Shown here piece by piece: positions 2,148-20,301 of a stretch of 43,009 nt of DNA. Source of the DNA: Acidobacteriota bacterium (GTDB taxonomy: Bacteria > Acidobacteriota > Vicinamibacteria > Fen-336); assembly GCA_036741815.1 (NCBI GenBank), contig DAINRN010000001.1:1-43009 (forward strand), read 5' to 3'. Every line of letters starts with the position of its first letter. Position 1 is the first letter of the stretch. The translations under genes and the position numbers were made by a program. The notes under the pieces were generated by a model that was not told the DNA's origin, did not search any database, and saw nothing but the letters and a program-made list of their open reading frames with translations.

Positions 2148-3167
2148 TTAGACGTACAGGTAGGAGAACGGGAAGCGGGTCGTGGAGGGACCCACCCCGC
2201 CGCTGGCATTGGCACGGTTGATCGGATTGGGTATTTGCGCCGCATAACGTGCTGTGACACGCAATGCAACCATATCTTGCTGTGCCAAGTTGTAAAGGAT
2301 GTTCCCTGCGCCGTCTTGGAGGACAGCCTGGTCTAACATCTTGTAAGTGATGTCCTGCCTGATGCCGACGATCCCCTGGTTCCAGTCGCCGGTGATCGCG
2401 CGCACCGTCTTGGGGGTGGGGTTGCCGATGTCCTGCCAGGCCAGGCCGGCATTGTTGAAGATGATCCGCTCGCTGTACAGCTCGCCACTCACGCGGTTCT
2501 TCTCGAGGCCCGTATTGGCGGGTCCGTCCTGGTGGTAGAGCAGCCCCTGGTTGAGGTCACGGGCGTTGCGGAGCGTGCTCTTGAACGTCATGGGCGCCCA
2601 AAAGCCGTTGGGGACGTAGCCGTCCACCTCGACCGCCGCCATGATGGCGTTGATGTCGGTGGCCACGTCGGTGGGCGCGCCGCTACCGGCCACCAGCACG
2701 TTGTTGGCCGCCGCGTAGGCCGCCGGCACCAGGCCGAGGAAGTTGGTCCACTCCACCGGCTTGCCGATCGCGAACATCACGGCGTTGTCCAGCGCGACCG
2801 CGATGGCTTCCTCGAGGTCAGGTTTGACCTCTTCCCACACCGAATAGTCCATATCGGCGGCCAATGTCTCTGGAATTGGCACAATAACCGCTAGCTCCGC
2901 TGCGTCGAGGTATTTATTGGCCCAGTTTACCTCAGTGGTTTGCTTCATGCCGGTGTCGCCGCTCACCCAGTAGGCGGTGGGGAGCAAGCTTTTGACCGGC
3001 ATGCGTTGCTGGGCGCGGGTCATGGTGCGGTGGCGGAACAGCTCAAGGACGGCCGACTTCTGCTTGACGCCCTCGATAATTTCGCGGCTCACGTCCTCGG
3101 GGATGAGGGCGCTGGCATCCGTCGAGCGGTCGATCACATTGCTGTAGGGCACATTCTCCTCCGGCAA
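2148..3167 (-). CDS. major capsid protein, HK97-fold family
   Basis: 339 aa. The C-terminal pattern ITGDWNQGIVGIRQDITYKMLDQ...LAQQDMVALRVTARYAAQIPNP is typical of HK97-like capsid proteins. A helical scaffold-like gene precedes it. Confidence 0.8.
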   Translation of the reverse strand: MPEENVPYSNVIDRSTDASALIPEDVSREIIEGVKQKSAVLELFRHRTMTRAQQRMPVKSLLPTAYWVSGDTGMKQTTEVNWANKYLDAAELAVIVPIPETLAADMDYSVWEEVKPDLEEAIAVALDNAVMFAIGKPVEWTNFLGLVPAAYAAANNVLVAGSGAPTDVATDINAIMAAVEVDGYVPNGFWAPMTFKSTLRNARDLNQGLLYHQDGPANTGLEKNRVSGELYSERIIFNNAGLAWQDIGNPTPKTVRAITGDWNQGIVGIRQDITYKMLDQAVLQDGAGNILYNLAQQDMVALRVTARYAAQIPNPINRANASGGVGPSTTRFPFSYLYV

Positions 3168-3197: not shown

Positions 3198-3980
3198 TTA
3201 TCGCTTCATAGCGGTGCGGATGAAGTCGTCCATGCTGCTGCCGCCACTGGTGGCGCCCACGGCGGGGAGGTGCTCGGGCTCGCCCAGCTCGGGGCGGATC
3301 TGATGCACCAATTCCTTGCGGAAGGCGGGGTTGCTGCGGAGCCGCTTCTCGGCCTTCTGCTCGCCCTCGTGGACGCCCTTCTGATAGAGCGCGTCGGCGA
3401 TGCGGCCGGCCAGCAAGGCTCGCCCATTGCCGCCCACGATGGGCTCGGCGAGCAGGGCGTCACGGGTGGGGGTGTCGAGCTTCGCGAGGTAGGAGTCGAG
3501 GAAGACGTGGTCGTAGAAGTCCGAAATCTCCCCGACCCGCTGGGCGGCGTCGGTGGTCTCCCCCTGCTCGATCGCCTTGGCCTGGCGCTTGAGGTCGCCG
3601 CCGAGGATGTCGTCACCCTCATCGAAGGCCCGCTCGGCGCGGTCGAGCAGCTCGGTGACCTCGCGCTCGCGCTTGGCGGCCTCGCGGCGGTACAGCTCGG
3701 CGTCGGTGCGGGACTGCACGAGGCGGTCCAGCTCCTGCGGGGTTTGCGGCGGGGTCCAGGCGGGAGGCGGCGGGGATGTGCGGGGTTCCGACTGGTCCGG
3801 TGGCGATCCCTCACCGCTCGTCTCGGCTCGATCCTCAGGGGACGGGCGCCCCCCGTGAATCATGCGATCGAAGAAGTGACCGATGCCCTTGGAACCACCC
3901 GACGGCTCCTCACCCTGGCCTCCGCCGCGATCGGGAAGGGCCGGGGCGCCACTCTGGATCTCGCTTCCGTCCATGGCCAC
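3198..3980 (-). CDS. putative scaffolding protein
   Basis: 260 aa, acidic and helical, with a disordered Pro/Gly-rich N-terminus. It lies directly upstream of the capsid gene. The start is either GTG at 3980 or ATG at 3974. The function is inferred from position and composition. Confidence 0.55.
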   Translation of the reverse strand: MAMDGSEIQSGAPALPDRGGGQGEEPSGGSKGIGHFFDRMIHGGRPSPEDRAETSGEGSPPDQSEPRTSPPPPAWTPPQTPQELDRLVQSRTDAELYRREAAKREREVTELLDRAERAFDEGDDILGGDLKRQAKAIEQGETTDAAQRVGEISDFYDHVFLDSYLAKLDTPTRDALLAEPIVGGNGRALLAGRIADALYQKGVHEGEQKAEKRLRSNPAFRKELVHQIRPELGEPEHLPAVGATSGGSSMDDFIRTAMKR

Positions 3981-4089: not shown

Positions 4090-5172
4090 TTACCCCTCCG
4101 GCCGGTAGGGCAGGCCCATCAGCATGCGCTGGAGCCGCTTGGCCTCCTCGGGGTCCATGTTGGGGAAGGTCGGCGCTCCCTGGACGAGCTGGCCGTAGGT
4201 GGGGAGCTGGGCCTGCGCCTGCGCGTTGGCCTGGGCGCGCGCGCCCTCGAAGTCTGGCGCCTTAAAGCCCAGCGCGGCCTCGGTGTAGGCCGGCATCGGA
4301 CGGCCGGCGATCTCCGCGTTGTGGGCGGCCAGGTACTGGCGGTCCCACTCGGGGCTGGCGCGGTAGGGCAGGGTGGCCAGCATCGTGCTCACCACGTCCG
4401 CACCGGCCTGGCGTCCCTCGCTGGCGCGCTGCACCCCGTAGGTGCCGGCCTGGGCGGCGGCCCCCAGCCGCGCGGCCTGCGCGGCTCGCTCGTCCTGTAC
4501 CTGCTGGTAGGGCAAGTCGATGAACGCTTTGTACTGCTGGTTGAAGCGGTTGCCCTGTTGGGTCTCCTCGAGCTGCCCGCGCGCCAGCTCGTTGGCCGCC
4601 CGCTGGGCCTCGATGGTGTGCAGCAGGGTCTGCGTAGCCCGCACGTCGGCGTTACTCGAGAGCGTGAACTGGTCGCTGGCCAGGCGATTATTGAAGGTGT
4701 CCTGGCTCACGCCACGGTGGTACTGGTCGCGCGCCAGGTCGATCCCCGCCTGCCCCTGCGCGATGGAGGTCTGGTCGGTGGCGATCACCTCCCGCCGCCC
4801 GTCAGGGTAGACCGCGATGGTGTTGGGGCCGGAGGTGAGGTACTGGGGCTTCTCAGGGGTGGCGCTCCCCTTGATCAGATACCAGTCCTCGTCCTGGGGG
4901 TTCCACTGGAGGATGCCCTGCCCGCCCGGCAAGGTGAGGGTGTGCGGGGCGCCCGCCGCCGGCGCCGTGCCCGGCAGGAACGGCTGGGCCGGCCGGCTGG
5001 CGTCGATCTCCCACTCCCCCTGCGCGTTGGCCTTCTCGTAGACGATGTACCCCTGCACCAGGCGCGACTGCACGGTGCCCGGCTTGGGCTTGTTCAGGTC
5101 CAGGGTGCCCCCGCCGGTCCCTGCCCCCGCGACGGCCGCGGCCTCCGCCGCGCTCAGCTCCTGGTCTGCCAT
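4090..5172 (-). CDS. hypothetical virion-module protein, 360 aa
   Basis: ORF track frame. I moved the start from the GTG at 5184, which lies inside the SD, to the ATG at 5170-5172 preceded by GAGGAG. The C-terminal half is Gln/Ala-rich. Confidence 0.7.
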   Translation of the reverse strand: MADQELSAAEAAAVAGAGTGGGTLDLNKPKPGTVQSRLVQGYIVYEKANAQGEWEIDASRPAQPFLPGTAPAAGAPHTLTLPGGQGILQWNPQDEDWYLIKGSATPEKPQYLTSGPNTIAVYPDGRREVIATDQTSIAQGQAGIDLARDQYHRGVSQDTFNNRLASDQFTLSSNADVRATQTLLHTIEAQRAANELARGQLEETQQGNRFNQQYKAFIDLPYQQVQDERAAQAARLGAAAQAGTYGVQRASEGRQAGADVVSTMLATLPYRASPEWDRQYLAAHNAEIAGRPMPAYTEAALGFKAPDFEGARAQANAQAQAQLPTYGQLVQGAPTFPNMDPEEAKRLQRMLMGLPYRPEG

Positions 5173-5222
5173 GACACTCCTCACTCTCTACATGCGTAGG
5201 GGAGGGCTTTTTGTAAACCCCC

Positions 5223-8200
5223 CTACCCTGCGAGCCGCTCCCGCCGCCGCTCTTCCTGGCCCCTGGCCCGCTCTTGGAGCTGGGGGATCACCTGGCCGCG
5301 CGCCTGCTCCCTCGCCTTGGCGTACACCTGATGCACGTACTTGCGCTGTTCTTCGTCGCTGGCGCCCTTCCACTCGGGCGTGTTCATCGCCTGGTACAGG
5401 AGACCGAAGGTGAGCTGGCCGGCCGCCCCCTGGTAGGTCGCCTGCTCCTCCCGCGTCAGACGCACCGGCTCACTCCCGATCTGGAGGGTGCGGCCCACCA
5501 TCCCTGGCTGCACCCGATACCCTTCCGACGGCAGGTGCAGGCGGGTCAGCTCCCGCTCCACGAGGTTGGTGTGCTCGGGCGTCGAGCGGAAGGGGTTCAC
5601 CAGGCCGCCCACGCCCCGCATCCCCGCCGCGCGCTCGGCCGGCTGTCCGAAGGCGGTCTGTCGCTCGGGCACGAGCTGGTTGGCGCCAGGGATCACCGCC
5701 AGGATGGCCTCCCACGGCCCCTCAGGGTTCCGCACCCGCTCGTCCGAAGCTCGAGCGGCCGCCCCCACCACCCCTGGCACCACGCTGCGGGCCAGCCCCT
5801 CGATGAACGCCCCGCCCTTCTTTTCGGGCTCGTGGACGGCGTCCAGGGCCTGGGCCAGGGTCTGCATCATGGGCTGGTCGGTCATGGCCCGCGCCATGGC
5901 CAGCGCGGCGGTGGTGTAGATGGCGTTGCCGCTGTCGGCGTCCTTATGGGCCACTGCGTCGGCGATCGCGGGGCCGGCGGCCAGCACCGGCGCGATCGGC
6001 AGGAGCTGGTAAGAGTGCCAGGTGTCGCCGATCTTGATGCTGTAGGGCTGCTTCCCGATCCTGGCCCACTCGTCGCGCTCGGCGGCGTCCGACGGGGTCT
6101 GACCGGTGATGAGGTCCTGCTGGGCCAGTCCGTACATGCCGGCCATCAGCGCCGAGCCGATCGATGCCCGCGCGACCCCCTCCGAGACCATCTGCTGGGT
6201 CGCCTTGCCTCGCAGGCCCTGCACCCCCAGCATCCCGAACCCGATCGGGCTGCGCTCCATCGCGAACTTCGCGAGGTTGATGGGGGTGGCGTGGAAGGGC
6301 AGGATGGCGGTCATGCCCGGCAGCTCTTTTAAGTGCCCGACCTTCTCGGTGACGAGGTTCGTCTTCTGCCAGAGCTTCTCACTCGCGAGGTCCTGGGCGT
6401 GGGCGATCATCTCGTCGGTGGGGTTGACCCTTAAGGTCGCGGCGCGCTCTGCGAACGCGTCCCCCTTCAGGCCCTCTTGCTTGGCCAGGCGGTAGGCGTC
6501 GGCGTAGATGATCCCCTTCTGCGCCTGGGCGCGGGCCAGCGCATCGTTGGCCTTCACCAGGCGGGTGGGGGCATTCAGGAGCGCGCCCCCGAAGGGACCC
6601 TGCACCGCCTCCGGTCCCACCGCCGCCAGGTCCTCGCGGGCGGCCGAGACCGTGGCGCCGTGGCGCAGCACGTCCAGGGCGTCCTGCACGCCCTCCCCCA
6701 GCGCGGCAGCCATCCCCGCGTACTCGGCGGCCACCTCCCCGCCGTAGATCGTGCGCTTGCCGGTGAAGCGACCGATCACCGCGTCGATCGGCACGGCGGC
6801 GGCCTTCTCTAACGGATAGGCGGCCAGGGCGGCCTGGGTGGAGATCAGGTCGCGGATGCGGCCCACCGGCGCGGAGAGCAGGCTGTTGTACCAGGCCCAG
6901 CTCGCGTAGTCGCCGAGGTTCTTCTGGCCCAGCACCTTGATGGCGCGCGCGGTGGCCAGGGGGTCCTCGAGGTCCACCTCGTTGAGGTACTTGGCGAAGT
7001 CCGCTTCCTTGCGGTTCTTGTACATGGAGGAGAGGAGCGTGCGGGCGCGGGCGCCGGGGTCGGCGACCAGCTCGGGGTGGCGCGCCATCTGCGTGAGCAC
7101 GCGCACGGCCTCGCCCTGGCGTCCACCGGCCTCACTGGCGCGGTAGCGGGTGACCGCCTCGGCCAGGTCGGCCAGCTCGGCCTGGGGCAGACCACTCTTC
7201 CCCTGGCCGGTGGCGGCGGACTGGGCGGCGCGGAAGGCTTCGCGGGCATCGGCGATCGCCTGGGTGGGGGACTCCTCAGCGGCGGCAGCTCGAGCGCCCG
7301 CAGACGCAGCGCGGCGGCCGAACCCACCGGCCCGAAAGCCAGCAAATCCTGCCGCCGCACCGCCAAGCCCCCTGACTAAACGTTCCTCGGGGCTGGTTTC
7401 TTCCTCGGTCCCTAGCTGCCCGGCGCCGGCACCGGCGAAGGCGCCGAGGGCGTTGGGACGGGCTCCGGCTCCGGCGGCGTCGGTTCCGCCTGGGCCAGAG
7501 GCACCATGATCACTGCCCCGCTCTGATACACGGGGTGGTTCGCCGGCGCGGGGCGGCACCCCAGCCGGTCGAGCGCCTGTCGAAATGTCTCCTCGGGCAC
7601 GGGACTCATTCCAGGCACGATAGTCTTCCCAGGACGCTCCTGGGGCGTGCGTTTGGATCAGCTCGCCGATCTGTCTCGCGACCGCCGCGCTCTCCTCGGG
7701 CACCACCACGCGCACGAAGTCGCGCTCACTCGAGGTGCTGGTGAGGTACTCGGCGTCTTTGAGAGCGGCCACCAGCGCGTCGAGCTGCTCGCCCTGCGCG
7801 TTGATCTGGATGCCACCTACCTCCCCATAGTGTACGTCCGGCACGTGGATACCGATGCTTTCCACCTCGGGGGGCAGGCGCTCCAAGATCACGTCCGCGA
7901 TGCCCGTGGTGGTCTGTCGATTCCCGCCGGGCACCACCACTTGCAGACCGTAGTCGGTGGGGACCACGCGATGCACCAGCTCGATGCCTTCCATGAGGTA
8001 GGCGGGGGTCCCGTCCTCGAGGTCGTAGGCGTGGCGCAGGCCCAGCGCGGCCTGGTCGGCGCTCCCAATGGCGATCACCGGCGCCTGGCGCTCGGCGATG
8101 CTGCGGTAGCCGCTCTCGGCGGCCGCCTCGCCCACCGGCAGGGGTTGCGCGCCCTTCGAGCCCGCACCAGGGCTGCGGAGCTGCTCGGTGCCAGGGGCCG

Positions 8201-11200
8201 ACAGGTCGGCCTGGGCGGCTCGCGCCGACGCGATGTCGAGACCGGCCGCCTTCGCCTCATCGGAGGTGCCGAGCCGCCTCGACTCGAGCATCTTCGGGTC
8301 ATTCAGGACGGAGGTCAGGTCGCCGCTCTCGGCCTCGCCGCTCTCGAAGACGCCGGCCTGCTTCGCCTTGAGGAGCGCCTCCCCCAGGCTCATCCTGCCC
8401 TCGTCCACCGCGTCACGTAGTGACTTGGTGGCAGGGTGCTCGGTCATCTGCTTCATGGCGAACCACATGGCGGCCTGGGCCTGGTTGGGGGCGATTCCCC
8501 GCTCGCGGGCCAGGTAGCGGGTCAGGCCATCCGCCAGGCGGTAGGTGTTGTTGTCGCCGGCCAGCCACTCGTCGTACTTGAACCCGAACAGCTTGGCCAT
8601 CCAGGTGTCGATCACGCTGTGGGGGTCGTACTTGAGGTGCGCCATGTTGAGGATGTTGCCGCCGTAGCTGGCAGTTTTCAGGCCCTTCACGTCGGCGAAC
8701 CCGTCCTTGTAGATGGCCCACGCCTTGTCGAGCTTGTCGCCGGACCCCCAAAACTTCGGCGGCCCTCCTGGCACCGTCTCCATCTGGCCGGTGGCGGGGT
8801 TTCTGACTCGCTTGGGCTTGGTGGTCAGCGAGGGGTCGTTCCAGCGGGACGCCTCCCACTTCTTCCCCAGGTTGTCGCGGGTCAAGAGATCGTCGCGCGC
8901 CAGCTCCCGCGCCCAGCGCATGATGGCCAGGGACTGCGCGAAGTTCTCTTCCACGCTGGTCTGCGGGCTGGTGGCCGCGAAGAGGGCCGACCACTCGCGC
9001 ATGTTGTCCTGGCCCACCAGCTTCTCGGCCTCGGTCGCGAAGAGGTGATACCAATGCATCCAGGGCATCCCGATGTCGAGCGCCAGGCGCAGCTCGTCCA
9101 TGGTCCGCGGGAGCCCGTACTGGCTCTTGCCCGTCTCAAATTTGCTCGAGCTGTCGCTCCACCGCTGGGGCGAGAACGGCGCCTCGGGGCGGGGGCCTTG
9201 AGGGAACGCATCGAACATCTCGGTGACACTGGCGTGGGCCACGCCATCAGGGGACGCCAGCGCGCGGGCGCTCATGAAGTCGTTGACGGCCTTCTCCGGA
9301 CCCTCCGGCAGGCCAGGGTCGCCCACCGCCAGCCCCCCCTCGCGAATGCTGGGCACCTTACCGGCCAGGTACGCCTCCACGTCCGGCGCCGCCTGGCCGG
9401 CCAGGCGCTGGAGGTTCCCCACGTTCACCCCTGGGGGGGCGGACTCGGCGGGCGGGCGGAATCGCTCGATCACGTCCCGCCACCCCGCCTCCCAGTCGTC
9501 AGGGAGGGGGACACCGGCGAACTCCGCATGCGCCAGCTCGGCGGTCCGCACCGGTCCGATGGTCTTCCGCAGCCCCTCACCGGCCCGCACCTCGAGCTTG
9601 GCGATGGCCTCCTGGGCCTTGGTGGTGGCCGTGGGGAGCTTGCCGAGCGCCTCCGCGTGCTTCTTCTCGAGGGCCTGCTGGGTGTCGAGGAGCTTCTGCT
9701 GGGCCTTCGCTTCGGCCTCGGCGATCTTCGCTTCCGCGTTCGCGGCGGCCTTCTCGAGGGAGGTGGCCTGCTTCGCGCCCCGCGCATTGGCCACCGCGTG
9801 CTGCGCCGCCTCGTACTTCGCGCGAGCGGCGTCCACGGCGGCGTTGGCCTTCAGCACGTCCGCATGGCGATCGACCGCCGCCAGGGCCTGCTCGGCGGCG
9901 GTGACCGCGGTCTGCGCCTTCACCAGATCGGGGTGGCGTGCCAGAGCCTCGGGCGTGGCGCGCGCCAGCTCATCTGCGCGCAGGGCCGCCTGGTACGCGG
10001 CACGGGTAGCGCCCAGCGCGGCCTCGGCCTCCGCGAGGTTGGCCGGCGCTTCCGTCTTGGTCCCGCCGCGCGCGGCCAGGGTGACCGCCTCGCCGATGCG
10101 CGCGCCGGTGCCACGGGGGAACGCCCCCAGCGCGAAGCCGGCCAGCCCGGCCAGGGTGCCGTATTTCAGGTAGTCGCCGCTGCTGGTGTCCTCGCCGCCG
10201 GTGGTACGCGCCGCCAGGACTCCGCCGCCAGCCCCTTCCACCGCGCCGATCGCGCCCTGACGGGCGATGGTCGCGGCCGTGCGCTCGGCCGCCTGCCCGA
10301 TCCCAAAGGTCGAAGGGGGTAGCAGCGCATTCGCACTGGCGGCCTGCCCGTAGGACGGCTCGAAGCCGGGCAGACGCGACTGGGTGGCGAGTCCGGCGGC
10401 GCGCTCGGGAGCGGTCGCGCGCCCCAGCGGCTGCGTGGCCAGGCCGGCGGCGCGCTCGGCCTCCGTCGGCGCCGCCGCGAAGGGCAGCTCGGGCTGACTG
10501 GGAGTCACCGATTGGCGCACCCGATCGGCGGCCCGCCGGGCTTCCAGCTCGGCCAGGGGGTTCCCCTCCCGCTGCGCCTGGGCCGCCACCTCGTCAAACT
10601 GCGCGGCGGCCCGCGCGGCCAGGGGGCCGCTGGCACCGGCCGGGGGAGCGGCGGTGACCGCCCCCCGCTCGGCCAGGTTCCGTCCCAGGCTCATCCCTGC
10701 CCGGCCGGGGATGTCAGCGGCGCGCTCGAAGGCCCGCCCCACCCCGCCGACCAGGCGGTCGATCATATGGCCGGCCTTGGCGCCAGGGATGAAGTTGGTG
10801 GGGTCCAGCGCGTTCTCCACCACCGCGCCCACGCCGAGCCCCTCCGGCGGGATCAGCTCGAGGGGGCTGAGGGTTCCCCCCTCTGGCACGCGACCCAGGC
10901 CGGGCACCTCGCGCCCCTGGAAGGGCAGGGGGAGCTGGGTGGCGGCGATCTGCTCGGGCGTGGGCTGGTAGCGCAGCGCGGCCTCGGGCTTGGCGTAGAG
11001 GTCCGGCAGCAAGGCCCGCAGGCCGGCGTTCGCGGCCGGTCCGGCACCGGCGATGGCGCCGATGGGGGCCTCGGCGGCGCCCTGGATCACACCCCGCAGG
11101 GGGTCTTGCGGATAGCGGGCGGCCGCGTTCTGGATGGCGCTCACGGGGTTGTCCAGAGGGATGGGCGGCGGCGTGTACGGACCGATCGACGGGAGCTGCC

Positions 11201-12770
11201 AGGTACTGGGCTCGCGCGGGCGGATGGTCTCCACCGGCGGGGTCATGGCTCGTTCGCGCGCCGCGTACTGCTCGCCGAAGTCAAAGCTCGGCAGCACTGG
11301 CGCCGGCTGGGGGTTGGGGAGCGGGTCACTGTACATCCCCGCCGCGCCAGGGACCGCCGGCGGGAAGACTTGCGGTGGGGGTGGCTCGGGCGGAGGCGTG
11401 AGGGAGAGCGGGAGGTCGTAGGAGCTTTGTCCCAGCACGGGGTCCTGCCCCAGGCCGTAGGCATTGGCCCCGATGTTCCGCAGGGGCGGCGTGTAGGTCT
11501 TGAACGGCGAGGGGGCCGAGGGCGGCGGCACGAAGCTCTGCGCGGCCTCGATCGCCTGGCGGTTGATGGCGGCCAGGTCCGGCGCGCCGGCGGCCGTGCG
11601 GCCAGGCTGGGGGGGGAGCTGACTGCCCGGCAGGGGCTCAGGGATGGGCGGCTCGACCCCGTCGGGCAGGATCTTGGCCAGGTAGCGGCGGGTCTCCTCG
11701 AAGGGAGGGACCCCGCCGTACTGCTTCACCGCGCCAGGTCCGGCGTTGTAAGCGGCCAGGGCGGTGGCGGTGGAGCCGTACTGGCGCACGTAGCCGGCCA
11801 TCAGCTTCGCCGCGTAGTCGAGGCTCTCGAAGGGGTCATTGACGTTCACGCCAGGGTGGAACTGGGGCACGATCTGCGCGATGCCCTGCGCGCCGGCACT
11901 CGAGGCGCCGGTGATCTTGAACCCATTCTCTTGCTGGATCTGGCGCTCGAACACGTCGGGGTCGAACCCTGCCCGCTGGGCGGCGCCGCGCGCGTAGGCC
12001 CGCAGCCCCTCGGGGGAGGGGTCCCGCCGCGCGATGCTCTCGCCAGGAGTGAACGGGTTGTCGAGGTACAGCGCATGGGACGGCTGGCCGGCCACTCGCG
12101 CGATCTCCTCAGGGCTCATCCACTCTTTGCCGCCGCGATAGGCCGTCCCTGATGGTCCCACGAAGTAGCGGTCGTCCTCGGGGCGGTAGCCCAGGATCTG
12201 CCAGTAGTGGCCGGCCTCCCCCTGGAGCCCTGGCCCGCCGCTCGAGCTGAGCATGACGGGGTTGCCGTTCTGCACGTCCTGCTGCACCGCGCCCCAGTTG
12301 ACGCCGGCCTCCAGGCGGGTGGGCACCCCCATGGCGGTGAGGAGCTTCTGCTGGGCCTGCGGTCCCGCCTGGCCGCCCTCGGTCCAGCCGGTCTGCCGCG
12401 CCAGCACCAGGGCCTCTTGCAGGCTGGGCGGGCGGCCGGTGGTGGCCGCGAAGGCGATGGCCGCGGCCGGTCCACAGGCCGCCAGGGCCTCGGCGTAGGT
12501 CACGCCTGGCTGGTTGAACTGGCTCTGGCCCAGTGCCATGAGCTGCTCGGGTGAGCGCCCCGCCGTCGAGGATGGAGGACCAGCAGCCGGCGGGGCGCTC
12601 AGAGGCGCCGCAGGGGGCGGAGGGGTGAATTGCACGGGGTTGGCCACCATCTGCTCGAGCGCCGAGGTGTCCGGCGGGCGGTAGCGGTACTCCTCACGGT
12701 TGGCCGAGCGGAGCTGGCGCTGGAGGAGCAGCTCGTTGTGCTCTTCCTCGGTGATGCTAGGGAGCGGCAT
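5223..12770 (-). CDS. giant 2,515-aa multidomain virion/ejection-type protein (papain-like peptidase module + SLT lytic transglycosylase + Ala-rich coiled coil + unassigned domains)
   Basis: Single uninterrupted ORF in the track. Motifs are listed in the two domain features below. It sits in the late operon between the portal and capsid genes. Confidence 0.85.
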   Translation of the reverse strand: MPLPSITEEEHNELLLQRQLRSANREEYRYRPPDTSALEQMVANPVQFTPPPPAAPLSAPPAAGPPSSTAGRSPEQLMALGQSQFNQPGVTYAEALAACGPAAAIAFAATTGRPPSLQEALVLARQTGWTEGGQAGPQAQQKLLTAMGVPTRLEAGVNWGAVQQDVQNGNPVMLSSSGGPGLQGEAGHYWQILGYRPEDDRYFVGPSGTAYRGGKEWMSPEEIARVAGQPSHALYLDNPFTPGESIARRDPSPEGLRAYARGAAQRAGFDPDVFERQIQQENGFKITGASSAGAQGIAQIVPQFHPGVNVNDPFESLDYAAKLMAGYVRQYGSTATALAAYNAGPGAVKQYGGVPPFEETRRYLAKILPDGVEPPIPEPLPGSQLPPQPGRTAAGAPDLAAINRQAIEAAQSFVPPPSAPSPFKTYTPPLRNIGANAYGLGQDPVLGQSSYDLPLSLTPPPEPPPPQVFPPAVPGAAGMYSDPLPNPQPAPVLPSFDFGEQYAARERAMTPPVETIRPREPSTWQLPSIGPYTPPPIPLDNPVSAIQNAAARYPQDPLRGVIQGAAEAPIGAIAGAGPAANAGLRALLPDLYAKPEAALRYQPTPEQIAATQLPLPFQGREVPGLGRVPEGGTLSPLELIPPEGLGVGAVVENALDPTNFIPGAKAGHMIDRLVGGVGRAFERAADIPGRAGMSLGRNLAERGAVTAAPPAGASGPLAARAAAQFDEVAAQAQREGNPLAELEARRAADRVRQSVTPSQPELPFAAAPTEAERAAGLATQPLGRATAPERAAGLATQSRLPGFEPSYGQAASANALLPPSTFGIGQAAERTAATIARQGAIGAVEGAGGGVLAARTTGGEDTSSGDYLKYGTLAGLAGFALGAFPRGTGARIGEAVTLAARGGTKTEAPANLAEAEAALGATRAAYQAALRADELARATPEALARHPDLVKAQTAVTAAEQALAAVDRHADVLKANAAVDAARAKYEAAQHAVANARGAKQATSLEKAAANAEAKIAEAEAKAQQKLLDTQQALEKKHAEALGKLPTATTKAQEAIAKLEVRAGEGLRKTIGPVRTAELAHAEFAGVPLPDDWEAGWRDVIERFRPPAESAPPGVNVGNLQRLAGQAAPDVEAYLAGKVPSIREGGLAVGDPGLPEGPEKAVNDFMSARALASPDGVAHASVTEMFDAFPQGPRPEAPFSPQRWSDSSSKFETGKSQYGLPRTMDELRLALDIGMPWMHWYHLFATEAEKLVGQDNMREWSALFAATSPQTSVEENFAQSLAIMRWARELARDDLLTRDNLGKKWEASRWNDPSLTTKPKRVRNPATGQMETVPGGPPKFWGSGDKLDKAWAIYKDGFADVKGLKTASYGGNILNMAHLKYDPHSVIDTWMAKLFGFKYDEWLAGDNNTYRLADGLTRYLARERGIAPNQAQAAMWFAMKQMTEHPATKSLRDAVDEGRMSLGEALLKAKQAGVFESGEAESGDLTSVLNDPKMLESRRLGTSDEAKAAGLDIASARAAQADLSAPGTEQLRSPGAGSKGAQPLPVGEAAAESGYRSIAERQAPVIAIGSADQAALGLRHAYDLEDGTPAYLMEGIELVHRVVPTDYGLQVVVPGGNRQTTTGIADVILERLPPEVESIGIHVPDVHYGEVGGIQINAQGEQLDALVAALKDAEYLTSTSSERDFVRVVVPEESAAVARQIGELIQTHAPGASWEDYRAWNESRARGDISTGARPAGVPPRAGEPPRVSERGSDHGASGPGGTDAAGAGARPNALGAFAGAGAGQLGTEEETSPEERLVRGLGGAAAGFAGFRAGGFGRRAASAGARAAAAEESPTQAIADAREAFRAAQSAATGQGKSGLPQAELADLAEAVTRYRASEAGGRQGEAVRVLTQMARHPELVADPGARARTLLSSMYKNRKEADFAKYLNEVDLEDPLATARAIKVLGQKNLGDYASWAWYNSLLSAPVGRIRDLISTQAALAAYPLEKAAAVPIDAVIGRFTGKRTIYGGEVAAEYAGMAAALGEGVQDALDVLRHGATVSAAREDLAAVGPEAVQGPFGGALLNAPTRLVKANDALARAQAQKGIIYADAYRLAKQEGLKGDAFAERAATLRVNPTDEMIAHAQDLASEKLWQKTNLVTEKVGHLKELPGMTAILPFHATPINLAKFAMERSPIGFGMLGVQGLRGKATQQMVSEGVARASIGSALMAGMYGLAQQDLITGQTPSDAAERDEWARIGKQPYSIKIGDTWHSYQLLPIAPVLAAGPAIADAVAHKDADSGNAIYTTAALAMARAMTDQPMMQTLAQALDAVHEPEKKGGAFIEGLARSVVPGVVGAAARASDERVRNPEGPWEAILAVIPGANQLVPERQTAFGQPAERAAGMRGVGGLVNPFRSTPEHTNLVERELTRLHLPSEGYRVQPGMVGRTLQIGSEPVRLTREEQATYQGAAGQLTFGLLYQAMNTPEWKGASDEEQRKYVHQVYAKAREQARGQVIPQLQERARGQEERRRERLAG
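11667..12008 (-). other. SLT (soluble lytic transglycosylase) domain within the giant ORF (aa ~255-368)
   Basis: Canonical SLT motifs are present: FERQIQQENGF (catalytic Glu), AQGIAQIVP and ALAAYNAGPGAV. Confidence 0.85.
12051..12548 (-). other. papain-like (C39-type) cysteine peptidase-like module within the giant ORF (aa ~75-240)
   Basis: Candidate nucleophile in AEALAACGPAAAIAFA (Cys99). Candidate His in GEAGHYWQILGY (His188). The spacing and context resemble C39-like peptidase folds. This is pattern recognition only. Confidence 0.4.
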
Positions 12771-13146
12771 GGTACTTCGCCTCCCGCGCTCGGCGCGCCT
12801 CGCGCTCGAGGGTCACCAGCTTCTGAAAGCGGCGCTCCAGAGCTTCCTCCAGGGGGACGCCCTCCTGTTCCATGATCAGCGCGTTGGTGTAGGCGACCCA
12901 CTTGTCGCCCCCACTCTGGAGCAGCGGGTCCGTCGCGATCATCTCCGCGATTTCCGCGTGCTGGAGGTCGGCGCAGGAGTCACACAGCGGCCCCAGCCAG
13001 CCGCCGGCGAGCTTCGCGGTCGCGCAGGTACAGTCGGGGTTGCGGGCGGGGAGCGTCGGCTCGGCCGCCATGACCTCGTCGGCCGCCTGGGAGAAGCGAG
13101 CGCGCTCCTCGGGGGTCAACGGGTCCTCAGTAGGCTGGCTGGTCAT
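12757..13146 (-). CDS. hypothetical 129-aa protein with a Cys cluster (CTC...CDSC)
   Basis: Track frame 12757-13257. I set the start to the ATG at 13144-13146, which follows GGAGGAGGG. Sequence: MTSQPTEDPLTPEERARF...NPDCTCATAKLAGGWLGPLCDSCADLQH. Confidence 0.65.
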   Translation of the reverse strand: MTSQPTEDPLTPEERARFSQAADEVMAAEPTLPARNPDCTCATAKLAGGWLGPLCDSCADLQHAEIAEMIATDPLLQSGGDKWVAYTNALIMEQEGVPLEEALERRFQKLVTLEREARRAREAKYHAAP

Positions 13147-14281
13147 AGGGCGTCCCTCCTCCCCCGCGCACGCTCCCGCCGAGCTGGCGCCGACGGCGGC
13201 GCATGGCCAGGTAGGCCCGCTCCTCAGGGGTGGCATGCACGCCAGGGTCCTCCTCACGCAGGAGGATGGAAGCGCGGGGGCTGGCGGGGAACTTGGCGGG
13301 GTCGTTGGGGTCGCCCAGCACCAGGCGCTCGAGGCGGGCGTAGTCGGCCTCCCCCTGCTCGGAGCCGATGGAGGACTGCGCCAGGTTGTTCAGGCTGGCG
13401 GCGCCGCGTCCCACGGTGTTCCCGCGATCCAGGTGGATGCCGAACGCCTCATTCCCGCGCATGGTATTGCGGGCGGACTCGTCCACGCTCATCCCGAACT
13501 GGGGGCCACTGAGCCACTGCGGGCGGGGCTGGTAGGGGCCGAGCAGCTGCGCTTCCTGGGGGCCAAGCGCGTGACGCTGGCTGTACGGCTCGGGCAGACC
13601 GGCCAGGGGCAGGGGGTTCAGCTCGGGGGTGTACACCTGGGGGCCGGCGGCGGCGGCCGCTTCCTGGGCGCCCACCGCCTGTTGCCACTCGGCGCGCTGC
13701 TGCTGGGCCTTGATCCGCTCGTCGCTGATGGCCGAGCGGGCCGCCATCTGCTGACCGGCCAGACCGGCGCCGCTGGGCGGCGCGGTGGTGGGCGTGTACT
13801 GGCCGAAGCGATTGAGAAGCGACTCGTTCCGCATGGCCTCCTCGCGGAGGTCGAACTGGCGGCGCTGCTCCTGGCGGGCGGCCTGGTCGTTCAGCAGCTC
13901 GTACTGCCACTTCTGCTTGTAGTATTCCGCCTCGGTGGTCGGCGCCCCGCCCCAGCCAGGCGGGGCGCCCTGATAGCCCGGCGGGGGCTCATTGGGGACG
14001 CGGGTAGCCTCGAGCAAGGCGCGGGGGTCGTAGGAGAGGGGGCCGCCGGAGCTGCCGGCGGGGAGGGTGGAGCCCTGCACGCCACCGGTGGTGTCCGGCG
14101 GGGCGGGCGGCGCCGGCTGGTAGGGGTAGCCCGCGAGGGCGGCGCGCACCTGGGGGCTCATGCCCCACGGGTAGACGCCACTGGGGGCGCCCTCGAGGGG
14201 GACGTTATCGTAGAGGTCTTGCAGGGAACGTATACGGACGGGTTTCGGCGGCGGCGCGTAGCGCGGGCGAGGAGCGACCAC
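13127..14281 (-). CDS. Pro/Gln-rich hypothetical protein, 384 aa (virion-internal role possible)
   Basis: ORF track; GTG start. It overlaps the 3' end of the upstream ORF by about 77 nt. That upstream frame loses third-position G/C within the overlap. Confidence 0.65.
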   Translation of the reverse strand: MVAPRPRYAPPPKPVRIRSLQDLYDNVPLEGAPSGVYPWGMSPQVRAALAGYPYQPAPPAPPDTTGGVQGSTLPAGSSGGPLSYDPRALLEATRVPNEPPPGYQGAPPGWGGAPTTEAEYYKQKWQYELLNDQAARQEQRRQFDLREEAMRNESLLNRFGQYTPTTAPPSGAGLAGQQMAARSAISDERIKAQQQRAEWQQAVGAQEAAAAAGPQVYTPELNPLPLAGLPEPYSQRHALGPQEAQLLGPYQPRPQWLSGPQFGMSVDESARNTMRGNEAFGIHLDRGNTVGRGAASLNNLAQSSIGSEQGEADYARLERLVLGDPNDPAKFPASPRASILLREEDPGVHATPEERAYLAMRRRRRQLGGSVRGGGGTPYDQPAY

Positions 14282-14687
14282 CAGGGACTCGCATTTCTGA
14301 GGGGCGCTCGGGGGCGATCATCGCATCAGGGAGACCCGCGCGGCCTTCCCGCTCCGCCTTCCGCAAACGGGCGATCAGGTCCTTCTGCTCGTTCTCCGGC
14401 GCGCGGGTCACCAGCTCGGCCACGGCCTCGAGGTCGGGCGTCGGCTGGAGCATACCACGGGGCATGTAGAGCTTCCGCCACCACGCCTCGAACTCGTCCT
14501 GGGTCGGGGCGTTGGCCATGTAGGGCGGGTGCTCGCCGGCAATGCGGTGGTACACATTGTCGATCAAGGGCGGGGTGTCGTTGACCACGGTGTCCACCGC
14601 CCGCTCCCACATATGGGTGGGCCGCAGGCTGGGCTGGCGGGTGTCCTGGGGGGCCAGCGGCTGCTGGGTGGGGGTGGGCTCACGCAT
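14205..14687 (-). CDS. hypothetical protein, 160 aa
   Basis: ORF track. The ATG at 14685-14687 lies inside direct-repeat copy 1. The last ~25 codons overlap the next gene. Confidence 0.6.
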   Translation of the reverse strand: MREPTPTQQPLAPQDTRQPSLRPTHMWERAVDTVVNDTPPLIDNVYHRIAGEHPPYMANAPTQDEFEAWWRKLYMPRGMLQPTPDLEAVAELVTRAPENEQKDLIARLRKAEREGRAGLPDAMIAPERPSEMRVPGGRSSPALRAAAETRPYTFPARPLR

Positions 14688-14717
14688 CAGTGACCATCCC
14701 GCTCATCGAGCGCCTGG
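14657..14717. repeat. direct repeat copy 1 (61 bp) of a gene-junction sequence
   Basis: gcggctgctgggtgggggtgggctcacgcatcagtgaccatcccgctcatcgagcgcctgg. It matches 15056-15115 except for one extra g and one c/a mismatch. Confidence 0.9.
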
Positions 14718-15021
14718 TGAGCGCCTCGCGGGCTTGCTGATACGCTGCCTCTGCACCATAGGCATACGTGGCCCCCTCGGTACGAGGGTTCTGCGCCTCG
14801 ATCTGCGCCAGTGCCCAGCCGAGCGCCGCCCGTAGCCGCTCGTTCTCGGCGGCCAGCGCGTTACGGGTCAAGTGAGTGTCCACTACTATCCCGCGCGGGT
14901 GCCACTCGGAGCGGTGCACGGTCTCCCCCAACCTATCCTCCACTACCACGTAACCAGAGCCATCGGTGCGACCATGCACCGTGATCTTTTGCTCGTTGGC
15001 ATACAGCACCTGCTCAGCCAT
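14680..15021 (-). CDS. hypothetical 113-aa protein bracketed by the 60-bp direct repeats (moron-like insertion)
   Basis: ORF track; GGAGGGGGAG SD before the ATG. Its last ~12-13 codons are read from repeat copy 1 in a frame different from the one used in copy 2. Confidence 0.6.
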   Translation of the reverse strand: MAEQVLYANEQKITVHGRTDGSGYVVVEDRLGETVHRSEWHPRGIVVDTHLTRNALAAENERLRAALGWALAQIEAQNPRTEGATYAYGAEAAYQQAREALTRRSMSGMVTDA

Positions 15022-16362: not shown

Positions 16363-18402
16363 TTACATGCCAGGTTGCGGCAGCATCGCCTGGGGCACGG
16401 TGGGGGTCCCTGGCACCCCGCCCACCAGGCCCGGTTGCATCCCCTCGGCCGCATTGGGAGGCGGCGGCGGCAGCACCGGCAGCCCCGCCCCTGGCTCCAC
16501 CGGCAGCCCCGCGCCCCCTGGCAACCCCATGGGCTCCTGGCCAGGGACGCCACCGCTGGGTGGCATGGCGGTGAGGGCTTGACGGATCGCCTCCTCATCG
16601 CGTATATCTAGCTTCTGTAGGACCTTGTTAATGCGATCCCCCTTCACTCTCGGGTCCTGTTCTATGTCATAGACTAACCATTCCTCCCTATTTTCATCGT
16701 AGTTGCCACCACTGTCCTCTATGACCTCGCGTGGCGTCTTGATACGCAGTCGTAAGGCTTCACCAGCACTACGTAGCTGGATCAGGTCATTGGTGGGCGT
16801 CATGGGCTCGAGCTTCACGTGGTAGGTATGGTTGCCGTGGAGGTCCTCGGGGCCGAGCCGCAGCCAGCCGCGCCCTGGCGCTCGCCGACGGGCGGTGGCC
16901 GGCAGCTCGCCGAGTACGTAGACAGCTTCACACAGGTCATGCTCTATCAGCCAGCTCTCAAAGCCTACTCTACCGCTCAGCATAAACTCTAAGTTGTCAA
17001 TGATGGGGTCCCACAGCAATCTGGCCAAATGAGACGCTTGATTGAGCGCATATCCGCTCTCATCTCCGCTCACTACCCCCTGTACAACCGCAGGAAGGGC
17101 AAGGTTCAGCGTCTCGCGCGCAAACGCAATCATCTTCTCGAGGTCGATGCCCCCCTTGCCCAGCTCGATCGGGTCCAAGTCCCACGGCACAATCGACCCT
17201 GGCGTGATCTTGAACTTCTGCCCGTCCTGGCTCTCCACCCCTGGCGCCAGCGCCATCACCCCGTCGGCCAGGCCCAGGCCCGGCTGCGGCTTGCGCTTGT
17301 ACGCGGTGTACGCATAGCGGTAGGCTGTCTGCGTTTGCATGGTTATGAACGAGTTTAGCATCTCGTACATCCGCAGGAAGCCGAAGATGAGCGACAATCC
17401 CTGGCTCTCGACTCTTCTCGAGGATGTAGATACCCCAAAACAATGGAAATACGGCCCTCGGAGGGTGTTCGTCTCGCGTATGCCGTAGTTATGCTTCCAT
17501 TCCTTGAGGGTGTGCCCGTCGCCCCGCAGGAAGTTGTCCCCTGGCCCGCAGATGCACGTGCGGCAATACTCCGAGTCCCACACCTCATACACCCTGAGCG
17601 TCAGGGTGTTGGACCCCTTCATGCTCGAGCGCCAGTGCTCGACACTCACGCCCATCGCGGCCGGCACCACCTTGCCGTTCTTGGAGAGCCCGATCTCGCC
17701 CTTGTACCGCTCCAGGCAGGTATAGTAATCAACGTCTTTCACCTCTACTATGCACGTATAACCATCCTCACCCTGCACATAGAAGAAGTTTTCAGGTGGT
17801 ACGTCCATACTGGCGATCGGGTACGGAATGTTGCGCTTGTACTCCTCCGTCAGCTTGGTATAATCCGCATCGGACTGCTCGTAGCTGTAGTCGTGCTCCC
17901 GCTCGACGCGGTCATACAGCTCGCGCCTGGTCGTCCCCGCGTACTCGTAATACTCACCCCAGGCCCGCCGCGCGCGGGGGATCGTCTTGGCCACCGCCTC
18001 GCCCTTCGCCACCTGGCTGTACACGAGCTGGCGGGTCAGCCGCCGCTGGCTCTCGTGCTGCTGGCGCTCCCAGGCCGCCTCGAACCCCTTCTCGCGCAAG
18101 GTCTGGTTCCGCAGGCCCGTATCCCCGATCGTAACGGGATCAAAGTGGATCTTGGGCGGATTGACGCTCAGTGCAGCCGCAATCGTATTGACGGTGTGTA
18201 ATGCGTGCGGAAGTCGCACTTCTAACGTAGTATCCCGATATTCGTCGGGAATCTCCACCTCACGATCCATAAAGATGATCTCATCCGCGTATTGCATGAG
18301 CTGGTTGCGCGCCTGGAACGGGGCCATCACGTCCCTGACCAACCCCAACAAGTCCTTGGTGTCGCCGGCTCGGCCGGTGTAGCCCCGTCTCGCCTCAGCC
18401 AC
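16363..18402 (-). CDS. putative portal protein, 679 aa
   Basis: It is the largest ORF between the terminase and head genes. The size and a Pro/Gly-rich C-terminal tail fit large portal proteins. I recognised no diagnostic motif by eye. Confidence 0.5.
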   Translation of the reverse strand: MAEARRGYTGRAGDTKDLLGLVRDVMAPFQARNQLMQYADEIIFMDREVEIPDEYRDTTLEVRLPHALHTVNTIAAALSVNPPKIHFDPVTIGDTGLRNQTLREKGFEAAWERQQHESQRRLTRQLVYSQVAKGEAVAKTIPRARRAWGEYYEYAGTTRRELYDRVEREHDYSYEQSDADYTKLTEEYKRNIPYPIASMDVPPENFFYVQGEDGYTCIVEVKDVDYYTCLERYKGEIGLSKNGKVVPAAMGVSVEHWRSSMKGSNTLTLRVYEVWDSEYCRTCICGPGDNFLRGDGHTLKEWKHNYGIRETNTLRGPYFHCFGVSTSSRRVESQGLSLIFGFLRMYEMLNSFITMQTQTAYRYAYTAYKRKPQPGLGLADGVMALAPGVESQDGQKFKITPGSIVPWDLDPIELGKGGIDLEKMIAFARETLNLALPAVVQGVVSGDESGYALNQASHLARLLWDPIIDNLEFMLSGRVGFESWLIEHDLCEAVYVLGELPATARRRAPGRGWLRLGPEDLHGNHTYHVKLEPMTPTNDLIQLRSAGEALRLRIKTPREVIEDSGGNYDENREEWLVYDIEQDPRVKGDRINKVLQKLDIRDEEAIRQALTAMPPSGGVPGQEPMGLPGGAGLPVEPGAGLPVLPPPPPNAAEGMQPGLVGGVPGTPTVPQAMLPQPGM

Positions 18403-19296: not shown

Positions 19297-19565
19297 GACC
19301 ACAGCGCCTCGAAGGGCGGGGGGAGGTCCGGCCGCACGCTCCCTGGCGGCCGCGGTCGGCGGTCGCTGCGCGGCGCCTTGAACACCTCGAGGTGCCCCCA
19401 GCGGATGCAGGCGGCCAGGTAGCCGTCGTAGTAGTCGAGCCGCGAGCTGCGGTCCCGCCGGCAGTAGTCCTCCGCGTACACGTCGAGGAGCTTCTGCTGC
19501 TCCTCCCAGGTCAGCTCTGGCGGCGGCGGCACCGCGTTATGCGCGTGCTTCTTGGGTTCCGACAT
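19293..19565 (-). CDS. hypothetical protein, 90 aa
   Basis: Track frame 19293-19841. The ATG at 19563-19565 follows GGGAGGGGA. Sequence: MSEPKKHAHNAVPPPPELTWEEQQKLLDVYAEDYC... Confidence 0.55.
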   Translation of the reverse strand: MSEPKKHAHNAVPPPPELTWEEQQKLLDVYAEDYCRRDRSSRLDYYDGYLAACIRWGHLEVFKAPRSDRRPRPPGSVRPDLPPPFEALWS

Positions 19566-20301
19566 CCATCCCCTCCCTCGCGGCGGCCAGGCGCCGCCGG
19601 CTACTGGCCACGTAGTCTGCACTCTGGTCAAATCCCCGCCCCCGGCGCCCCAGCCGCTCCGCCACCACCACCGTGGTGCCGCTCCCCACGAAGGGATCGA
19701 CCACCAGATCGCCAGGGAACGACAGCAGGGTGATGAGCCGCCGCGCCAGCTCCTCGGGGAAGGCGGCGGGGTGGCGCTCCCACGCGTGGCTCTCGCTGGG
19801 GATGCGCCACAGCCCATTCGTCCACGCCAGCCACTCCTCATGCGTCAGGTCGCTCTCGCTGGCCAGGCGCCCCTGGCCCCAGCGCCCCTTGCTGAACAGC
19901 GCGATCATCTCCACCCGCGCGATCACGTGGGGCGCGCTGGCGCTGTCCACGCTGCCCCGTGCGGTCGTCTTGGTGATGTGGTCGTCCTCCCACACGATCG
20001 ACGAGCGGTAGGTCCAGCCGGCCGCGAGCGCCTCCCGCACCGCTTCCGCGTAGGTGGGGCGGAACCCGCCCCTGGTGGTGTCGAGCGGGACGTTCAGCGC
20101 CAGGCGCCCCCGCTCCCTGGTCACGCGGAACGCCTCGCGCAGCCAGGCGTACAAGTGCTCCATCCAGGCCAGCGCGTCATCGTCCTCCCCGCCGTAGTCC
20201 TTGTCGAGCCCATAGGGCGGCGAGGTCAGGATCAGGTCGGCCACCTCGGAGTCCAGCGGCAGGCAGGCCGCGTCGGCCACCTCGAGGCAGGCGTCGTTCA
20301 T
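19537..20301 (-). CDS. DNA methyltransferase, N6-adenine/N4-cytosine type (SPPY motif; motif IV precedes motif I)
   Basis: Motif IV is DLILTSPPYGL and motif I is VVDPFVGSGTT. The start is the ATG at 20299-20301 (ATGA with the upstream stop), not the track start at 20505. Confidence 0.8.
   Translation of the reverse strand: MNDACLEVADAACLPLDSEVADLILTSPPYGLDKDYGGEDDDALAWMEHLYAWLREAFRVTRERGRLALNVPLDTTRGGFRPTYAEAVREALAAGWTYRSSIVWEDDHITKTTARGSVDSASAPHVIARVEMIALFSKGRWGQGRLASESDLTHEEWLAWTNGLWRIPSESHAWERHPAAFPEELARRLITLLSFPGDLVVDPFVGSGTTVVVAERLGRRGRGFDQSADYVASSRRRLAAAREGMDVGTQEARA

Follow-up and report, generated by a model that had tools for sequence, protein, structure and literature searches.

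What kind of protein does a phage encode when it devotes a single gene to 17.5% of the available DNA? The question is raised by contig DAINRN010000001.1 of the Acidobacteriota assembly GCA_036741815.1, of which positions 1 to 43,009 (forward strand; here called the window) were analysed, and which carries on its minus strand one open reading frame (ORF) of 2,515 codons. Inside an infected cell, no other phage product acts earlier than the giant ejection or polyvalent proteins. Although a small phage genome may give over one-sixth of its length or more to them, only a handful have been studied. A first-pass annotation, made from the letters of the window without database searches, had put the share of this ORF at roughly a sixth, in keeping with the measured value, and had described its product as a polyvalent virion or ejection-type protein with about 1,900 residues that could not be assigned. 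The present analysis supports that description, and we give a probability of roughly 70% to the reading that the gene encodes a polyvalent-type internal-virion (ejection) protein. The support comes from homology to an internal virion protein of Desulfovibrio phage ProddE, a match to PHROG 6651, polyvalent domains in the homologues, and the lack of recognizable tape-measure neighbors. The unassigned portion has become smaller; about 950 amino acids (aa) can now be placed in an internal-virion module and a DUF7178-like domain, and the rest is still without a family. The gene and its parts are as follows.

5223 to 12770, minus strand: giant ORF, 2,515 codons plus stop, 264.5 kDa, isoelectric point 5.6, uninterrupted in the window
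12780 to 12785, minus strand: ribosome-binding site GGGAGG, 9 nt upstream of the ATG, read from the sequence
12051 to 12548, minus strand: papain-like Peptidase_C39_2-type domain (predicted), aa 75 to 240, from PF13529 and the Cys/His pattern
11667 to 11996, minus strand: SLT lytic transglycosylase domain (predicted), aa 259 to 368, from PF01464 and PHROGs 342 and 669
9381 to 11663, minus strand: Pro/Ala/Gly-rich low-complexity linker, aa 370 to 1130, from composition in a window scan
10542 to 10607, minus strand: 66-bp in-frame length polymorphism, aa 722 to 743, present here and absent from a Joint Genome Institute (JGI) contig
8286 to 9308, minus strand: all-alpha middle domain, distantly DUF7178-like, aa ~1155 to 1495, from HMMER and AlphaFold2
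7641 to 8093, minus strand: second globular domain, aa ~1560 to 1710, from the alignment consensus H.V...G....V.LPGGN
7281 to 7640, minus strand: Gly/Ala/Arg/Pro linker, aa 1711 to 1830, from codon-position GC
5226 to 7163, minus strand: predicted "internal virion protein" module, all-alpha, aa ~1870 to 2515, from PHROG 6651 and profile matches
5235 to 5570, minus strand: C-terminal end-piece, aa ~2401 to 2512, from hhalign to the LPD38-type module

The evidence that carries this reading lies largely at the C terminus. The last ~650 residues, previously regarded as globular and unassigned, do form a helical fold in an AlphaFold2 model (predicted local distance difference test [pLDDT] score of 77.8, predicted template modeling [pTM] score of 0.70), but they no longer lack an assignment. 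A region of ~600 aa, with the motifs LPF..TP.N....ERSP.G and LTG..P.D..ER....G.QPYS and with moderately hydrophobic helices, was common to about 50 of the 100 homologues found in the first search, at 24 to 34% identity. PHROG 6651, annotated as "internal virion protein," matched this module with E values of 1e-20 to 1e-23. When deposited phages were searched with the module by tblastn, no more than eight records matched; they include Desulfovibrio phage ProddE, a member of the Autographiviridae, and roseophage CRP-403, in both of which the matching protein is called "internal virion protein D," and cyanophage P60, where it is called "internal virion protein." A profile built from the module matched aa 612 to 1247 of the 1,268-aa ProddE protein D with an E value of 8e-89, and in ProddE that protein lies in a T7-like gene order (tail tubular proteins A and B; internal virion proteins B, C, and D; then the tail fiber). 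With an E value of 1e-105, the same profile also matched a Manatee Spring podovirus protein of 1,121 aa whose gene immediately precedes that of the endolysin. Because of these matches to ProddE and to the podovirus, together with the lack of a match to T7 gp16, the C-terminal region can be described at the sequence level as an internal-virion-protein module of a non-T7 type.

In the same collection, 49 other giant proteins terminate in a second type of C-terminal module, which carries Pfam LPD38. When the two module types were compared by hhalign, they aligned over 106 columns with a probability of 96% and an E value of 2.8e-9, against ~1% or less for controls, and by this profile comparison the last ~110 aa are the only demonstrably homologous part of the two. 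Attempts to lengthen the link failed. Pairwise BLAST to one LPD38-type protein (P0101) was empty, and a 458-column hhalign alignment (mact 0.05) was not relied on because its column confidence was near zero.

The N terminus carries two predicted cell wall enzymes. The SLT domain, one of the features already noticed in the letters, matched PF01464 over aa 259 to 353 with an E value of 1.5e-11 and 44.3 bits, against a gathering cut-off of 21.3. Its catalytic glutamate (E281) and residues Y341, N342, and G344 of the AYNxG motif were invariant across 87 sequences, and position 282, right after the glutamate, holds an Asn where 98% of the relatives have Ser. With the family score and catalytic motif both in place, this domain is a predicted lytic transglycosylase. 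The papain-like or C39-like Cys/His arrangement that had been proposed for aa ~75 to 240 also gained support. PF13529 scored 20.6 bits on aa 95 to 200 in the whole protein and 24.9 bits when aa 1 to 250 were searched alone, on either side of the gathering cut-off of 24, and 18.6 to 29.3 bits in the relatives. C99 is the sole cysteine among the 2,515 residues. It is invariant, along with G100 and H188-Y189, in 68 homologues, in which P101 (99%) and Q84 (97%) are nearly so. At the sequence level this residue pattern is much stronger evidence for the domain than the borderline Pfam score, and C99 and H188 are its candidate catalytic residues. Where the C39-like domain is missing, most relatives have M23 or NlpC/P60 in its place, and for this reason the domain is read as a probable peptidoglycan endopeptidase rather than a processing protease. 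Glucosaminidase, SLT_3, and NlpC/P60 domains occur among the giant proteins found by way of the middle domain, and the N-terminal slot as a whole points to peptidoglycan hydrolases.

Comparison with the relatives suggests how the protein is put together. One relative (P0007) has the same head, at 50% identity, and the same tail, with DdrB-ParB in the middle; two others have the same tail and LPD3, accompanied by a methyltransferase (MTase) domain and ResIII in P0070 or by InPase and DdrB-ParB in P0071. The C-terminal module also occurs in relatives that lack SLT and have InPase, DdrB-ParB, LPD3, or MTase plus ResIII. Across the homologues, the hallmark domains of polyvalent proteins are represented by DdrB-ParB, InPase, LPD3, LPD38, and ART-PolyVal. 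The middle is thus a swappable slot between a wall-hydrolase head and an internal-virion tail, filled in close relatives by nuclease-like, pyrophosphatase, or methylase-helicase domains. Dozens of relatives of 1,400 to 2,800 aa keep the head-to-tail order in one ORF, including a 2,849-aa ORF (L014) with all three modules. In some relatives the two ends of the protein are encoded apart. On a 978-kb contig of a Chloroflexota metagenome-assembled genome (MAG) (L012, positions 8567 to 14904), the head (816 aa) and a protein with the C-terminal module (1,311 aa) are separate adjacent genes, and at several other MAG loci the C39-like domain sits in an ORF of 273 to 330 aa. The family therefore undergoes gene fusion and fission, and the separate adjacent genes underline its modular build.

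Among the MAG contigs that carry relatives of the C39-like domain, 10 of 16 belong to Chloroflexota, and the others include Actinomycetota, Gemmatimonadales, and Acidobacteria. Two of these relatives lie on contigs of 0.98 and 5.4 Mb, the longer one from Actinomycetota (L008), and the length of those contigs suggests that they are prophages. A scan of the genome collection with the single head sequence found no relatives, whereas the C39 alignment did find them. Many homologues lie on contigs of 38 to 46 kb.

The genes around the giant ORF are those of a phage head block. The recognizable and positionally informative ones are listed here.

21110 to 23284, minus strand: large terminase subunit (PHROG 38, E = 6e-61)
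19537 to 20505, minus strand: N6/N4 DNA methylase
16363 to 18402, minus strand: portal-sized protein of 679 aa, named from size and position only
4090 to 5184, minus strand: 364-aa gene between the giant gene and the capsid gene
3198 to 3980, minus strand: scaffold-like 260-aa gene between the giant gene and the capsid gene
2148 to 3167, minus strand: HK97-type major capsid protein (PF05065, E = 1.6e-22; PHROG 10, E = 6e-44)

On the one strand, the order runs from the terminase through the methylase, the 679-aa portal-sized protein, small ORFs, and a 384-aa gene to the giant gene and on to the 364-aa, scaffold-like, and capsid genes. The 679-aa protein is a putative portal, judged from size and position only; searches of Pfam, PHROG, and NCBIfam gave it no family, tblastn against 50,697 deposited phage records was likewise negative, it lies in a dip in G+C content (0.62 to 0.64 versus ~0.70), and its counterpart at that position in the related contig L005 is 38% identical. 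Also in L005, identity to the window proteins is 33 to 44% for the portal-sized, scaffold-like, and capsid proteins. The order of terminase, portal-sized gene, giant gene, and capsid-sized gene recurs in three other contigs, none of which has a gene of tape-measure size; synteny was seen in L002 and L005, L004 has the same order by gene size, and one of the three contigs is the near-identical JGI contig.

The first-pass annotation had found no recognizable tape-measure, tube, or sheath gene, and the family searches of the neighboring genes likewise found none and no chaperone family. The 384-, 364-, 260-, 679-, 385-, 571-, 353-, and 310-aa neighbor proteins had no family in Pfam, PHROG, or NCBIfam. 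Partners resembling gp14 and gp15 were not recognized, and BLAST comparisons with ProddE proteins B and C and with the L005 neighbors were negative. The phage is likely a tailed, short-tailed one of ~40 to 45 kb; a short tail is suggested by the lack of tape-measure, tube, and sheath families, by a putative tail block whose largest gene encodes 571 aa, and by the contigs of 38 to 46 kb on which the homologues lie. No terminal repeats were found in the window. The capsid protein is closest, at 45% identity, to that of Arthrobacter phages, which are long-tailed, and the tail module of the giant protein is shared with podoviruses; the head module is a mosaic.

Proteins with such a build have precedents. 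Polyvalent proteins were defined in a survey of 131 domains by Iyer et al. in 2017, who noted lysozyme-bearing members among late phage genes (PMC5512222). As in that class, several unrelated domains (SLT, a putative Cys peptidase, two globular domains, and a virion module) are joined here in one polypeptide, and the gene lies among virion genes, between the portal-sized and scaffold/capsid genes. Unlike them, the giant protein itself has no match to an LPD or effector-domain Pfam model at E ≤ 1 (only its homologues do), and it has no zincin-like peptidase, with neither an HExxH nor an HxxEH motif and no Pfam match; that trait is common in the class, not universal.

The closest parallels in overall plan are found in podoviruses. 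In phage JC1, gp69, a homologue of Bcep22 gp75, takes up 22% of the genome and joins an N-terminal lytic transglycosylase, MTase/helicase, and LPD3 to a C-terminal LPD38 (PMC9144972). These 4,602-aa "DarB-like antirestriction" proteins of Lessievirus podoviruses resemble the giant protein in having a transglycosylase head, variable cargo, and a conserved C-terminal module, all encoded by one gene among virion genes with a large share of the genome. Bcep22 gp75 matched the LPD38-type profile with an E value of 9e-59, so that its C-terminal module is homologous to that of the giant protein, at the profile level, over the last ~110 aa; it had no direct match to the giant protein or to profiles A1, A2, and A4. 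The two differ in their cargo, which here is DUF7178-like plus a second domain instead of MTase, helicase, and LPD3, in the additional N-terminal C39-like peptidase, in a C-terminal module so diverged that the LPD38 Pfam model misses it, and in gene position, since the giant gene precedes the capsid gene whereas gp75-type genes follow the tail genes.

T7 gp16, annotated as "internal virion protein with endolysin domain," and the protein D of Autographiviridae likewise have SLT near the N terminus, and the C-terminal ~600 aa of the giant protein are homologous to the C-terminal half of ProddE protein D and, more weakly, to the CRP-403 and P60 proteins. To T7 gp16 itself there is no detectable similarity in sequence or fold, and the giant protein is twice as long, with an extra peptidase and cargo. 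In the Stx podoviruses, proteomics found the 2,811-aa gp47 of phi24B in virions, and its proposed role is that of an ejection protein, carried in the capsid, that lengthens the tail conduit (bioRxiv 10.64898/2026.04.10.717836). By description it too is a giant multidomain protein of a podovirus; however, its LPD5, LPD1, LPD38, and MuF-C metallopeptidase domains were not detected in the giant protein. In PTXU04, a polyvalent protein of 2,198 aa is required for infection (PMC11879866). By strict tests of sequence, the giant protein is not a member of the LPD38, DUF7178, MuF, or T7 gp16 families, and it is by analogy that it would work like the polyvalent ejection proteins already described.

Under this reading, a few copies of the protein would be packed in the capsid by way of the C-terminal module and, at infection, would exit through the portal and tail before or with the DNA. 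Two activities would then open the wall, with the SLT domain cleaving the glycan strands and the C39-like domain the cross-linking peptides; the hosts are probably soil bacteria with thick walls, of the Chloroflexota or Actinomycetota. The C-terminal module, helical and partly hydrophobic, may help to form or anchor a conduit for the DNA, and the middle domains would enter the cell as early-acting cargo. The location in the virion on which this scheme depends is predicted.

Several observations weigh against the reading. The C-terminal profile did not match T7 gp16 (E = 0.12), and BLAST gave only a nonsignificant alignment in the SLT region (E = 0.32). The model of the C-terminal region had no fold match in the PDB (best Foldseek E value, 0.36), a database that contains structures of T7 gp14 to gp16. 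The protein has no strong transmembrane segment, its highest Kyte-Doolittle mean being 1.72, and the Pfam LPD38 model does not match it; its link to that family is confined to the last ~110 aa. Its gene lies between the portal-sized and scaffold/capsid genes rather than in the T7 position after the tail-tubular and gp14/gp15 genes, and the tail genes match no family, so the short-tailed morphology is itself something that we infer. The C39_2 match is borderline and the Pfam family is not specific to wall hydrolases, so this domain could cut a polyprotein instead. Finally, the middle domains are without known function.

Some of these points are shared by the rival that survives best, although we still consider it unlikely: that the protein is an ejected carrier of effectors in the manner of MuF or DarB proteins, delivering enzymes for anti-defense or takeover, perhaps once the C39-like protease has cut its own polypeptide, and forming no part of a conduit. 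The lack of a strong transmembrane helix would fit such a carrier, as would the antirestriction-type domains that occupy the middle slot in relatives. C39-family peptidases are processing proteases, which would suit the proposed self-cleavage; however, the wall endopeptidases M23 and NlpC/P60 are found in most relatives that lack the C39-like domain, and these are not processing proteases. In directly following the portal-sized gene, the giant gene occupies the classical position of MuF (PMC5512222), but position is the only resemblance, as no MuF (Phage_Mu_F) domain was found by Pfam or PHROG. The homology of the C-terminal module to an internal virion protein encoded at the gp16 position also argues against this rival, and the roles of carrier and conduit component are not mutually exclusive.

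A different concern is whether the ORF is real in its full length. The window has a G+C content of ~70% and contains an opposite-strand ORF of 628 aa, and the coding signal was checked because long spurious ORFs are common at such G+C content. G+C content at third codon positions (GC3) was 0.85 to 0.94 in 16 of the 17 blocks of 150 codons, and the other two frames contained 55 and 27 stops across the ORF. The gene starts with ATG at 12770, and the preceding gene stops at 12757, giving an overlap of 14 nt. JGI metagenome contig Ga0208685_1000116, otherwise 99.96 to 100% identical to the window, encodes the same giant protein with 0 substitutions and a single difference, the 66-bp in-frame deletion. 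Since the ORF is intact in that second assembly and the length variant is in frame, the single-gene reading stands; the coordinates 5223 to 12770 of the first-pass annotation were exact, and the giant ORF is a single unbroken gene within the head block.

No Pfam or PHROG model matched the linker of aa 370 to 1130. A coiled-coil-like, Ala/Glu/Lys-rich stretch had been suggested for aa ~700 to 1050; this composition was found at aa ~905 to 1060, which alone is free of Pro and Gly and prone to form helices, but aa 700 to 900 are rich in Pro and Gly, and the heptad pattern is weak. The 66-bp variant is flanked by an 11-bp direct repeat, CCCCCTGGCCG, and could be due to replication slippage or to an assembly difference in the Ala-rich linker. 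In the linker of aa 1711 to 1830, GC3 falls to 0.53 to 0.73 and G+C content at second codon positions (GC2) rises to 0.60 to 0.87, versus about 0.9 and 0.5 elsewhere in the ORF; both other frames are closed by stops there, and the flanking conserved domains share one frame.

An assembly artefact that fused two or more genes or hid frameshifts in repetitive stretches would be in line with the length difference between the two assemblies, the GC3 dip, and the separate head and C-terminal genes of L012. We judge it very improbable, given that the indel is in frame and flanked by repeats, that the recognizable domains on either side of every linker share one frame with the other frames closed, and that dozens of relatives have the same arrangement in a single ORF.

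It is still harder to read the protein as the tape measure of a long-tailed phage with wall-degrading domains, like SPbeta YomI. The likeness is real as far as it goes: the protein is long, its SLT segment resembles, at 41% identity over ~100 aa for the YomI type, that of tape-measure proteins from SPbeta-like Bacillus phages, and some weak homologues carry PF10145, a phage tail tape-measure family; the capsid protein, as noted, is nearest to that of Arthrobacter phages. These tape-measure-type matches, however, are confined to the SLT or C39 part, and the giant protein contains neither PF10145 nor another tape-measure domain. Its gene precedes those for scaffold and capsid instead of following genes for tail tube and chaperones, the genes around it offer no tail-tube context (the family searches found no tube, sheath, or chaperone), and its C-terminal module is common to two podoviruses. 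We consider equally improbable a nonvirion enzyme of late lysis or an exolysin, for which the SLT and peptidase domains and the match of PHROG 669 "endolysin" to the SLT part might speak, since ~85% of the 2,515 aa belong to neither wall-enzyme domain, the gene is one of the head block and includes an internal-virion module, and no holin or spanin adjoins it.

In the preferred reading, that of an internal-virion ejection protein, the middle domain is a candidate for cargo. The first-pass annotation had recognized aa ~1150 to 1420 as globular and without a family. The globular character stood, with an all-alpha AlphaFold2 model of high confidence (pLDDT, 84.4; pTM, 0.85), but a weak likeness to a family did emerge. 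DUF7178 (PF23802) scored 19.2 to 19.6 bits, below its gathering cut-off of 27, and gave weak matches in 10 of 28 relatives, one of which (P0006) passes at 47.7 bits; at best the domain is a distant relative of DUF7178, a family not mentioned in the literature searched. PHROG 3842, of unknown function, also matched it (E = 1.8e-5).

A word-indexed search for homologues of the middle domain found none, whereas HMMER, run exhaustively over 1.84 billion representative proteins, placed it in 184 clusters at E ≤ 1e-3. The matches lie nearly all inside proteins of 1,400 to 6,325 aa, and these giant-protein clusters are apparently phage encoded. No tblastn match was found in the 50,697 deposited phage records or in 72,556 plasmids.

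The conserved motifs of the domain are WY..F, FGITS.QT...N, AKT.SY..N, DPNST.D.WM, and QAQAA.WF, and a 28-member alignment has eight invariant residues (E1259, T1267, N1276, G1357, K1365, D1388, Q1432, and W1436). Six of the eight (E, T, N, K, D, and Q) are polar or charged, and this suggests that the domain is an enzyme. In structure comparisons, its model had no fold match in the PDB by Foldseek (best E value, 0.45; template modeling [TM] score, ~0.1). The top PDB hits of both this and the C-terminal model, terpene synthases and membrane transporters with E values above 0.3 and TM scores of ~0.1, were treated as noise and not as indications of function. A lysozyme-like fold, considered on the strength of the Glu and G-I-T-S-x-Q motifs, was rejected; the spacing is unlike that of SLT, and Foldseek found no lysozyme. 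Nothing meaningful came from sequence searches of the PDB, whether the query was the whole protein, aa 1500 to 1790, or the profile of the middle domain or of the C-terminal region. In the viral structure library BFVD, the domain matched parts of giant proteins of uncultured phages with a probability of 1.0 and a TM score of ~0.4, and some of these matches are annotated as ART-PolyVal-like or as "large polyvalent protein associated domain."

The second globular domain, aa ~1560 to 1710, is conserved jointly with the middle domain in related giant proteins, and BLAST reaches into it in two of them (P0009 and P0019); it had no Pfam, PHROG, or PDB sequence match. A tentative proposal, which as a whole we would bet against without thinking it far-fetched, is that the middle domain represents a new enzyme family with a fold unseen in solved structures, delivered by the phage as an early effector, for example against host defense or a wall or membrane target, and that the ~110-aa C-terminal end-piece is a general signal for loading into capsids.

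The class of giant polyvalent ejection proteins in short-tailed phages has already been described, and the present example does not overturn current understanding. What it adds is the paired C39-like/SLT head, a cargo domain without a solved structural relative, the position of the gene in the head block, and, probably, a host range in soil Chloroflexota and Actinomycetota. It displays clearly a plan of wall-cutting head, exchangeable cargo slot, and capsid/ejection tail, and extends that plan to phages whose relatives bin with soil Chloroflexota and Actinomycetota. The cargo domain is a concrete target, being abundant and having a confident predicted structure with no known function or solved relative. 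If the reading is true, the head could be mined as a wall hydrolase with two activities, and the tail module could serve to bring foreign proteins into capsids.

Outside the head block, further features of the window bear on the biology of the phage.

25265 to 26398: Mom-like DNA-modification protein (PF25680, E = 2e-28), with an N-terminal extension of ~145 aa without assignment
31156 to 32106: DUF6551/ParB-like gene, near the plus-strand cluster
32305 to 33285: DnaC-like gene, adjoining the plus-strand cluster
33989 to 36472, plus strand: cluster of ORFs of 131, 173, and 200 aa that interrupts the minus-strand array

With the Mom-like protein and the separate N6/N4 methylase, the phage may modify its own DNA in two ways. 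The plus-strand cluster may be a regulatory switch region, and no integrase was found among the genes scanned. The last feature lies farther along, in the putative tail block.

38181 to 39080: 299-aa protein with a Laminin_G_3/concanavalin-like lectin domain (E = 2e-11)

This is likely a receptor-binding tail protein, and it is adjoined by genes of 571, 310, and at least 353 aa that match no family.

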